NCBI GenBank assembly: GCA_002269645.1
Contig: NIVC01000525.1
Location: forward strand, 1 to 64,000
Direction of reading: 5' to 3'
DNA: 64,000 nucleotides
Origin: Macrostomum lignano
Lineage: Eukaryota
How positions within the stretch are numbered: the first letter of the stretch is position 1; each line of letters opens with the position of its first letter. Shown here in pieces: positions 19,207 through 20,529 of the stretch. The position numbers and the translations under genes are program-made. Under the pieces are notes generated by a model. It searched no databases, was not told the DNA's origin, and saw nothing but the letters and a program-made list of their open reading frames with translations.

Positions 19207-19857
19207 ATGGATTGTCCTATCTGTCTCGGAGAATTTTCATGTAAACTACCTTGTATATGTGTCAATAGACACCAGGTGTGTGGTTCTTGCTTAAGCCTTG
19301 CACATTACAAAAAACCTTTAAAAAATTGCCCTATGTGTCGAGGTAATCTCCGTCAATGCATGATATGCAACTCCTGGCGCACTGAACAATATTGCTTAAA
19401 TCAACATTTTATGTGCACACAATGTATTAAGAAGCTTGCTTATCGCTCCATTTGTCAGTGTCCTATATGCGATGCCACCCCTTTACCTAAAGTTAACAAC
19501 AAACTTGCATGCATTCAAGCGGACTACAACCTACAGCTTCACCCATTCACTTATGCTCTTTTTCCATCACATGCTATAATTATCCGCCTCAGATCATGGC
19601 CCATACCACGTGCTGCTCATAAAACACGTAAATACCTCGTTCGCTATTCCTCTTCCTACGGTTCTAGACTCCGGCAATTATCTCCACAAGAAATTGAACA
19701 TAAGCTGTTTAAAATTGTTAACGATATGAATTTTCACCCATGCCCCATCCTCTGTACAGCTCTACCTGCACTCATTCTGCGTAATGAGGACTTGTCTTAT
19801 ATATTACCACCCCAAGAATCATATGACTATAATAGTTCCGCTTCAGAAATTGATTAA
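19207..19857 (+). CDS. Double RING-HC finger protein A (216 aa), putative E3 ubiquitin ligase
   Basis: RING1 C3-C6-C18-H22-C25-C28-C41-C44; RING2 C51-C54-C63-H67-C70-C73-C85-C88. Intact ATG-to-stop ORF inside the LTR element. Confidence 0.88.
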   Translation: MDCPICLGEFSCKLPCICVNRHQVCGSCLSLAHYKKPLKNCPMCRGNLRQCMICNSWRTEQYCLNQHFMCTQCIKKLAYRSICQCPICDATPLPKVNNKLACIQADYNLQLHPFTYALFPSHAIIIRLRSWPIPRAAHKTRKYLVRYSSSYGSRLRQLSPQEIEHKLFKIVNDMNFHPCPILCTALPALILRNEDLSYILPPQESYDYNSSASEID

Positions 19858-19929
19858 AATACCATGCACCCACAGATATTGCAACCATTCTTGCACAGAT
19901 ATTACTTATCAAATTGACCATTTTCAGAC

Positions 19930-20529
19930 ATGGATAGCGACGAGTGCATTGTTTGTTATGAAGACACTGAACAGTATGTCTACTGTCAGCATGGGCATAA
20001 GTTCTGCTATAACTGCTGCACAACGGATAGAATAGACAAATGCCTGCTATGCCGCGCACCACCTACCCTGTGCCAGGTATGCAATACAACACCGCAACAA
20101 AGGATGTGCGCCAACGGACACTGGGTCTGCCGAGATTGTGCTCTAAAAATTCGGTGCCGCGACTATAAGCATTGCATAACTTGTGCAGCGCCAATATCTA
20201 AGGAAATTTACGCCGGAACAACAACATTACCAAAGATCCAACTTACAAAGGAGACCATGGACAGTATGACGGCCAAGGAACTAGCAACAGCTATACGAAC
20301 CTGGCCAATACCATTCAACAAGAGAGACCATTTGGAATATCTTTTTGACTTGGTACGTCAATATGCGGCGCATCCAATAAATACTACGAGTACAACTGAA
20401 GAGATCTACCTGGAATTCCTCAACGCCACCGAATCAACACAATTTACGCCGATACAGCACTTACTGTGGCCACTCGCGAGATTGACAACCAAAGTAAACG
20501 ATATACTGAATAATACGCTTTCCTATTAA
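19930..20529 (+). CDS. Double RING-HC finger protein B (199 aa), paralogue of A
   Basis: RING1 C6-C9-C19-H23-C26-C29-C38-C41; RING2 C48-C51-C60-H64-C67-C70-C82-C85. Shares the downstream R[ST]WPIP motif with protein A. Confidence 0.88.
   Translation: MDSDECIVCYEDTEQYVYCQHGHKFCYNCCTTDRIDKCLLCRAPPTLCQVCNTTPQQRMCANGHWVCRDCALKIRCRDYKHCITCAAPISKEIYAGTTTLPKIQLTKETMDSMTAKELATAIRTWPIPFNKRDHLEYLFDLVRQYAAHPINTTSTTEEIYLEFLNATESTQFTPIQHLLWPLARLTTKVNDILNNTLSY

Follow-up and report, generated by a model that had tools for sequence, protein, structure and literature searches.

What do two adjacent genes for proteins with paired RING fingers do inside a retroelement? The window, the whole 64,000-nt stretch of Macrostomum lignano DNA analyzed here, harbors two neighboring open reading frames, A (slot 1; 216 aa; 19207..19857, +) and B (slot 2; 199 aa; 19930..20529, +), which the original prediction had described as anciently duplicated retroelement cargo and as candidate E3 ligases directed against host defences.

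The two RING genes and their carrier

Each ORF encoded two back-to-back fingers of the form C-x2-C..C-x3-H-x2-C-x2-C..C-x2-C, each with eight ligands (C3HC4), at C3-C44 and C51-C88 in A and at C6-C41 and C48-C85 in B, just as predicted, and when either protein was shuffled 100,000 times, the double eight-ligand motif never arose. The second finger (RING2; aa 51-88 in A, aa 48-85 in B) began 7 residues past the first (RING1; aa 3-45 in A, aa 6-42 in B) and repeated its eight-ligand pattern. The endings were also as originally read, with a linchpin Arg closing RING1 (CPMCR, R45, in A; CLLCR, R42, in B), and RING2 ending on CPICD in A and CITCA in B. At 24% identity across 181 aligned columns (E 7e-12), A and B were indeed old paralogues, with N-termini of MDC and MDS, respectively, and no MG in the window's copies. 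The C-terminal domain, expected at ~110-130 aa, spanned 114-128 residues in A and B. The R[ST]WPIP motif held to be shared by this domain was present in both proteins (RSWPIP at A 129-134, RTWPIP at B 123-128), while family-wide only W-P was kept at >=90%. B exceeded the cut-off of Pfam zf-C3HC4_3 (29.5 vs 27 bits), and A alone matched none of the Pfam RING families. CLLCR in B was confined to the window's copy, the 13 other near copies found having CPLCR, and Leu39, at the position of the loop-2 Pro, may weaken this single allele.

Both ORFs were located inside an LTR element (14766-21639, 6.87 kb), at its 3′ side and downstream of a gag-bearing ORF, which bears out their description as retroelement cargo. 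Hallmarks of Ty3/gypsy elements were present, comprising 917-nt TG..CA LTRs (5′ LTR, 14766..15682, +; 3′ LTR, 20723..21639, +), a short target-site duplication (CTCG, 14762..14765 and 21640..21643), a primer-binding site (15685..15696, +), and a polypurine tract (20708..20719, +). The two LTRs differed by one mismatch in 917 nt (15122 vs 21079), and the 5′ LTR contained TATAAA (15040, +) and AATAAA (15188, +). The 1008-aa ORF upstream of A (16049..19075, +) was composed of Gag, with a CCHC knuckle at aa 235-250, a linker, a hydrophobic signal-like stretch, and the first half of Env, which reached RHKR (aa 925) and was followed in frame by an integrase C-terminal tail; a domain scan found no pol domain in it. 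Comparison with sister copies placed a deletion junction with 5-nt microhomology at 18860..18864 (+), where an in-frame loss of 4416 nt had taken out almost all of pol along with the latter half of env. This junction was carried by six of 23 genome matches, five of which had different flanks, while the sixth reached the end of its contig. The distinct flanks point to a non-autonomous form that spread recently and retained both RING genes. Uninterrupted ORFs of 2346-2498 codons were found in six of 25 fetched sister copies, and in all four sister polyproteins scanned the env-like region was followed by PR-RT-RH-IN, in that order, a series missing from the window's copy. The envelope-like region of the element had a signal-like stretch, the RHKR site, and a membrane segment, and two of the four polyproteins matched Monjiviricetes_fusion weakly, under the curated cut-off (E 2e-4 and 5e-5). 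The window's copy is a pol-less deletion form of a gag-env-pol Ty3/gypsy element, probably an errantivirus. Other young deletion forms of the element were 3.2 kb long with gag only (L169, L170; contigs C3022, C70) or 4.7 kb long with a frameshifted A (L098; contig C4582).

GAG-ENV-POL errantiviruses are described in Platyhelminthes, including 'Platyhelminthes_Rhabditophora_Mlig_errantivirus_2', in the accessible part of PMC13524379. As given there, this M. lignano errantivirus resembled the present elements in its Gag-env-PR-RT-RH-IN order, in a 12-nt primer-binding site identical to that at 15685..15696, and probably in its class III-type env. Its listed LTR/element lengths were 863/10591 vs 864/10591 for a sister subfamily in this genome, and this sister subfamily matches a published HSV/gB-type element. 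The matching subfamily has a shortened A only, whereas the window's copy has both genes and no pol, and identity between the window's subfamily and a close relative of the Mlig_errantivirus_2-like one ranged from 61% (Env) to 82% (RT). The main text of PMC13524379, in its accessible part, contained no mention of RING, ubiquitin, zinc, or accessory. The carrier backbone is already published, and its RING cargo is without an earlier report found in the literature searched.

A family of exchangeable paralogues

Genome searches yielded 126 matches to B and at least 150 to A. From 150 fetched loci we took 74 distinct RING-bearing frames, 40 of them two-RING frames, and aligned 25 proteins from the window and the loci (24 of them full-length, the other a short two-RING form) with three outside proteins, giving 28 rows. 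In the tree of these rows A stood apart from four more clades (B, C, D, and E), with clade supports of 95-99 and unsure deep joins. The RING genes are a genome-wide family of at least five coexisting paralogue clades, with two or three genes per element. Wherever slot 1, located directly after the integrase tail, was intact in the copies read, it held an A-type gene. The cassettes as a whole comprised A and B in the window, A and D on contigs C583, C262, and C2129, A, B, and C on C1063 and C391, and A and E on C282 and its relatives. The C2129 and C262 copies encoded an integrase 97-99% identical to that of an A+B copy, yet had D, about 30% identical to B, in place of B, which indicates that slot 2 was exchanged between sister elements.

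Zinc ligands were invariant or 90%+ conserved across the 28 sequences. The model of A built from this alignment, which was without zinc, had a pLDDT of 90 and a pTM of 0.82, and its residues 1-48 and 46-100 each aligned to solved RINGs (Z 4-5, rmsd about 2-3 Å, 45-60 residues), both fingers of A thereby having the anticipated cross-brace fold in the predicted model. The best solved relatives of the family profile were the RINGs of TRIM21, SIAH1, and RING1B (E 1.5e-5 to 9e-5), and 24 of the 28 members matched Pfam Sina_RING at E<=0.01; Foldseek with the whole model of A gave no match at E<=0.001 in the PDB or the viral structure library. By motif and predicted fold, both fingers are RING-HC. 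The proposal that Arg follows only the first RING extended to the family, as all 40 two-RING frames had Arg behind RING1 and none had it behind RING2, a count that stands for perhaps five to eight independent lineages since the sequences are related. Additionally, RING1 kept an E2-facing pattern, C-P-[IV]-C-L ... C-P-x-C-R, in most of the 28 members (P 23, I/V 25, and L 22 in the first part; P 26 and R 28 in the second). At the corresponding sites of RING2, P was present in 16 of 28 and R in 0 of 28, the hydrophobic residue of loop 1 was kept, and loop 2 was mostly polar. According to the accessible part of PMC12326332, Arg after the last Cys is the linchpin and some active RING E3s lack it, so that RING2 may not be inert. 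Judged from these motifs, the proteins quite probably have E3 activity. The genome also encodes UBE2D-, UBE2A-, and UBE2N-like E2s, in genes without introns.

The C-terminal domain alone was predicted as a six-helix bundle (pLDDT 84). Among 24 C-terminal domains none matched a Pfam family at cut-off, nor a Sina domain; structure searches returned no Foldseek match at E<=0.001 and no usable Atlas match, and the best VIA Z was 5.8, with none >=8. Such failed matching does not prove a new fold. Because the domain resembles nothing known, it is the architecture of the proteins that suggests substrate binding.

The pattern of substitution was assessed by Nei-Gojobori counting in 58 pairs of >38% identity among 24 open genes, a set whose choice as open biases it to function. 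Synonymous sites were saturated in 44 of the 58 pairs; in the 14 measurable ones dN/dS was 0.11-0.30 for 12 and 0.48 and 0.50 for two near-identical pairs, with 0.21 at dS 0.39 between the window's A and that of C583. Zinc ligands were retained even at saturated synonymous distance. The A/B-type genes are under purifying selection, and A and B are almost certainly functional proteins. In a comparison of a sister of the window's subfamily with C583, dN/dS was 0.02 in RT and in RH, 0.04 in IN, 0.05 in PR, 0.06 in Gag, 0.09 in Env, and 0.40 in the linker; A is the fastest-changing folded protein of the element in the pair measured. Between distant subfamilies, dN was about 0.3 in RING1, 0.3-0.5 in RING2, and much higher, about 0.9, in the C-terminal domain; RT and Env gave 0.13 and 0.29. 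Between subfamilies, A was about 40% identical vs 73-85% for the integrase core. Together, the low dN/dS and the domain rates mark the genes as functional and fast-changing, mostly in the C-terminal domain. None of the measured pairs had dN/dS >1, and positive selection is thus not directly indicated; the slot-2 exchange and the five clades do represent turnover as expected when targets change.

The original prediction had also pointed to both frames having stayed open, which is true in the window but carries no weight as evidence of function, because a copy this young would have open frames in any case; the functional evidence comes from the sister lineages. Rather than being frameshifted in most other copies, both frames were open in eight of the nine youngest, with A frameshifted in the ninth, and four older copies had a stop in A. 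Among the A matches listed, about 22 copies were reduced to an MG N-terminus plus the two RINGs of A, and an early stop interrupted A in about 21; in seven of these short or interrupted copies that were fetched, LTR identity was 99.5-100%. The 3.2-kb form without the cassette was present in at least three copies, and its junction appeared in all four runs used for expression below. The most numerous young sister lineages have lost most of the cassette, which in full is therefore not required in cis. A product shared in trans would account for this, as would a benefit that is modest or bound to context.

A few observations on these copies concern their termini and arrangement. One A lineage (L113, L114, L118, L128, L155, L157) starts with MGNA(L/Q)S(K/R), which we take to fit an N-myristoylation motif; this start is a likely myristoylation signal and points, if anything, to membranes. 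Nested decayed copies formed one-strand clusters (C2121:1-66000, 58/58 hits; C272:358000-425000, 41/41; C4009:33000-56000, 23/23) that held more integrase and RING ends than gag and that, in their layout, resemble one-strand piRNA clusters.

Regarding relatives, a UniRef protein of M. lignano ('RING-type domain-containing protein') was identical at 197 of 198 positions to a family member in this genome. An exhaustive protein search with A returned five matches, four of which were Logan proteins. The two Logan relatives that were checked against this genome had best matches of about 42% and 33% and are thus not encoded there, from which the family extends to other organisms. Word-index searches returned no protein relatives of B (36 candidates), none of the family alignment (515 candidates), and, as weak evidence, none among longer proteins for the C-terminal alignment (8000 scored), while 34 pattern matches in metagenome contigs included no confirmed one. 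An intron-bearing host ancestor was not among the 15 isolated loci inspected, which were element pieces or decayed fragments, most weak matches lying outside this set. RING1 scored 35.7 and 34.3 bits on host SIAH RINGs and 31.9 bits on a TRIM-like one, and RING2 scored 8-13 bits on the same RINGs; with RING1 similarly close to both types and RING2 like neither, no donor is named. A host cluster of TRIM-like RING genes with C-x3-H spacing (L190; contig C210, also C1491, C2920) was as near to RING1 as host SIAH and is, by this resemblance, a possible donor family.

Transcripts and a conserved RNA element

Expression was pursued in contigs of four runs from four studies, presumed to be RNA, in which read depth was not usable. 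A GT-AG joint inside the 5′ LTR, from 15147 to 15458 and marking an intron of about 310 nt (about 15149-15458, +), was found in all four runs, which argues that the contigs derive from RNA. This intron takes out the LTR's only AATAAA, and its removal could prevent premature polyadenylation in the 5′ LTR. A second GT-AG joint, seen in one of the four runs with 29 letters on its short side, connected a donor in the 5′ LTR (after 15586, +) to position 19928, two bases 5′ of the ATG of B, where the acceptor (19904..19927, +) ends in TTTTCAG. The leader exons of this spliced RNA contained no ATG, and none of 41 genome matches begins at the splice point. The contig with the B splice had a sibling allele at 20045, and contigs of two other runs had the window's private allele, a hint that the window's copy is transcribed. 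Expression of the pair, which the original prediction presupposed, is therefore borne out for B by a spliced transcript. An AG was present 0-2 nt 5′ of the ATG in 14 of 14 slot-2 genes and in none of the 7 slot-1 or 5 slot-3 genes, the slots being our own assignment. A splice into A was not seen in the contigs of the four runs, where absence is uninformative, and the loose contig ends listed did not include the spliced-leader sequence, as given in the accessible part of PMC8629364. Read-through from the polyprotein into A was considered and rejected, because A occupies a different frame and stops intervene.

A conserved structured RNA (19093..19156, +) lay downstream of the polyprotein stop and upstream of the start codon of A, with a predicted H-type pseudoknot (stems 19093-96 with 19106-09 and 19098-103 with 19121-26) and two short hairpins. 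This 64-nt element started 10-19 nt past the polyprotein stop, 5′ of slot 1, had at least 40 genome matches (copies including L154, L157, and L166), and was about 80-96% identical between subfamilies saturated at synonymous sites. In 19 copies, the pseudoknot and the two hairpins were 97% paired, and three pairs had changed on both sides, representing about three independent events in a structure drawn from the same sequences. The pairing exceeded every one of 500 shuffles on three of five measures, and slid controls by a wide margin. A search of Rfam with 14700-21700 gave no credible match, and the window's 81-nt piece alone folded no better than shuffles (z -1.16) in a program that cannot form pseudoknots. 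The position of the putative pseudoknot after the stop fits re-initiation, internal entry, or RNA protection. The same 64 nt contain an invariant ACAG and a GTAA(G/A)AG, which are splice-site-like and unused in the reads seen. Finally, inspection by eye of the sequence about 70-130 nt upstream of slot-3 genes (L045, L046, L048, L049, L050, L052, L053) showed TATA-like motifs and, in most cases, CCAAT-like ones, which suggest an internal promoter.

Possible function and known counterparts

The explanation we slightly favor is that A and B are accessory genes of an env-bearing Ty3/gypsy element and likely encode RING E3s. In this reading, RING1 would activate host E2~ubiquitin, RING2 would likely be a scaffold, and the fast-changing helical domain would likely select the substrate, most likely a host protein limiting the element; this is close to the division originally proposed (RING1 catalytic, RING2 structural, bundle binding the substrate), which motifs and rates would suggest. 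B would be made from the spliced RNA starting in the LTR, as seen in one run, and the pseudoknot that follows the polyprotein stop likely assists translation of A. With both proteins presumably working in trans, lineages dropping the cassette could ride on those keeping it. That the substrate is a host protein limiting the element has a near-even chance at best, and a target within host defence falls somewhat short of even. The narrower proposal of a piRNA or chromatin factor is unlikely: this analysis yielded no pointers to piRNA factors as the target, and the working piRNA pathway of M. lignano, described in the accessible part of PMC8191739, makes them a possible target, not a supported one. 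A more elaborate scenario, possible but on the doubtful side, is that an ERV-encoded, swappable, position-coded ligase cassette of two or three paralogues degrades host silencing or restriction factors in trans, each slot having its own route (pseudoknot, splice, internal promoter), and that cassette-less lineages cheat.

Several other explanations make use of the same features. Ligases working on the element's own particle pathway, where they would ubiquitinate Gag, Env, or membrane factors and thereby achieve ESCRT recruitment or clearance of receptor or Env, would suit an element with an envelope-like protein (signal-like stretch, RHKR site, membrane segment) and with one A lineage that presumably starts in a myristoylation-like motif. 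However, that N-terminus is absent from the window's A and B, slot-2 genes swap among elements with nearly identical Gag and Env, which is odd for a self-target, and forms without the cassette spread, so that we regard this pathway as rather unlikely. Arenavirus Z is a matrix protein with one RING, and A and B might, in a similar manner, be non-catalytic zinc scaffolds or decoys that block host E2s, E3s, or translation factors. The likeness lies in small size, the MG N-terminus of one sister lineage, a large lineage being reduced to two RINGs behind it, and a weak structural match of RING2 to Lassa, LCMV, and Machupo Z (Z 4.0-4.8), which is level with many ordinary RINGs and no better than them. 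Unlike Z, the window's proteins contain a RING pair and a linchpin Arg and lack MG, and the invariant Arg and CPxC loop of RING1 are hard to explain except by E2~ubiquitin activation; such a scaffold is quite unlikely.

Cell-death pathways are a frequent target of viral RING proteins, and the constant pairing of a slot-1 gene with a separately expressed slot-2 gene would accord with a pair that manipulates host cells broadly (apoptosis block, stem-cell fate, poison-antidote) to favor carrier cells. Yet both partners are of one architecture, lineages with a truncated A and no partner are common, and domain scans detected no BIR or other death-pathway domain, which renders this very unlikely. 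That the genes are captured host fragments hitchhiking without function, open merely from the youth of the copies, is hardly tenable: the window's copy is very young and many older copies have stops, but the idea is largely refuted by the selection data (dN/dS of 0.11-0.30, and zinc ligands kept despite synonymous saturation), and dedicated expression signals and relatives outside this genome also speak against it.

Retroviruses, HIV among them, hijack host ligases via adaptors, and RING ligases are encoded by large DNA viruses themselves. By analogy, the accessory ligases favored here would resemble those of viruses in mode, and their carrier is a known kind of element. The viral RING E3s of large DNA viruses (herpesvirus ICP0; those of nucleocytoviruses and baculoviruses) are likewise accessory proteins of small size that have a RING-HC domain and a linchpin Arg, and RING proteins of such viruses were the top matches in the viral structure library and Atlas, all of them weak (E>0.01 or score <0.9). 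The present proteins differ in their tandem RINGs and unmatched helical domain, and in being swappable paralogues of a retroelement. With SIAH/Sina they share C-x3-H spacing, the RING1 score of 35.7 bits on a host SIAH RING, and the Pfam Sina_RING matches, whereas SIAH zinc fingers and a TRAF-like beta-sandwich are missing and a second RING and an all-helical domain are found instead. In contrast to RBR ligases, there was no IBR match in the 28 members and RING2 follows 7 residues after RING1, and in contrast to TRIM proteins, there was no B-box match in the 28 and the helical bundle is short.

Among retrotransposons, the ORF3s of bdelloid rotifer LTR elements are, as here, extra ORFs after pol, typically from spliced messages, and the accessible part of the paper describing them (PMC5408684) has no mention of RING, ubiquitin, or zinc. 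PMC6338049, which covers extra ORFs and domains of retrotransposons, does not mention RING or ubiquitin in its accessible part. VANC of VANDAL is likewise an accessory protein proposed to act against host control, but it targets DNA and comes from a plant DNA transposon, and anti-silencing remains hypothetical for the proteins studied here; as of 2019, no TE-encoded factor was known against animal piRNA or KRAB-ZFP silencing (PMC6719617, accessible part). No retrotransposon or endogenous retrovirus encoding its own RING E3 was found in the literature searched. Small, probably expressed, and predicted to be well folded, these proteins of a laboratory worm with a working piRNA pathway make the question of counter-defence directly testable, and the unmatched helical bundle and the conserved RNA structure add two more new objects.

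Elsewhere in the window, host exons encoded C2H2 zinc fingers (10289-10759, +) and an AMPK alpha auto-inhibitory domain (38144-38734, +), and a MITE-like sequence (24605-25381) had 194-nt terminal inverted repeats, 99% complementary and 389 nt apart. Long tandem arrays of 32-nt, 18-nt, 4-nt, and 16-nt units (11640-14500, 22170-22950, and 42260 onward) explain several long spurious ORFs in the window.
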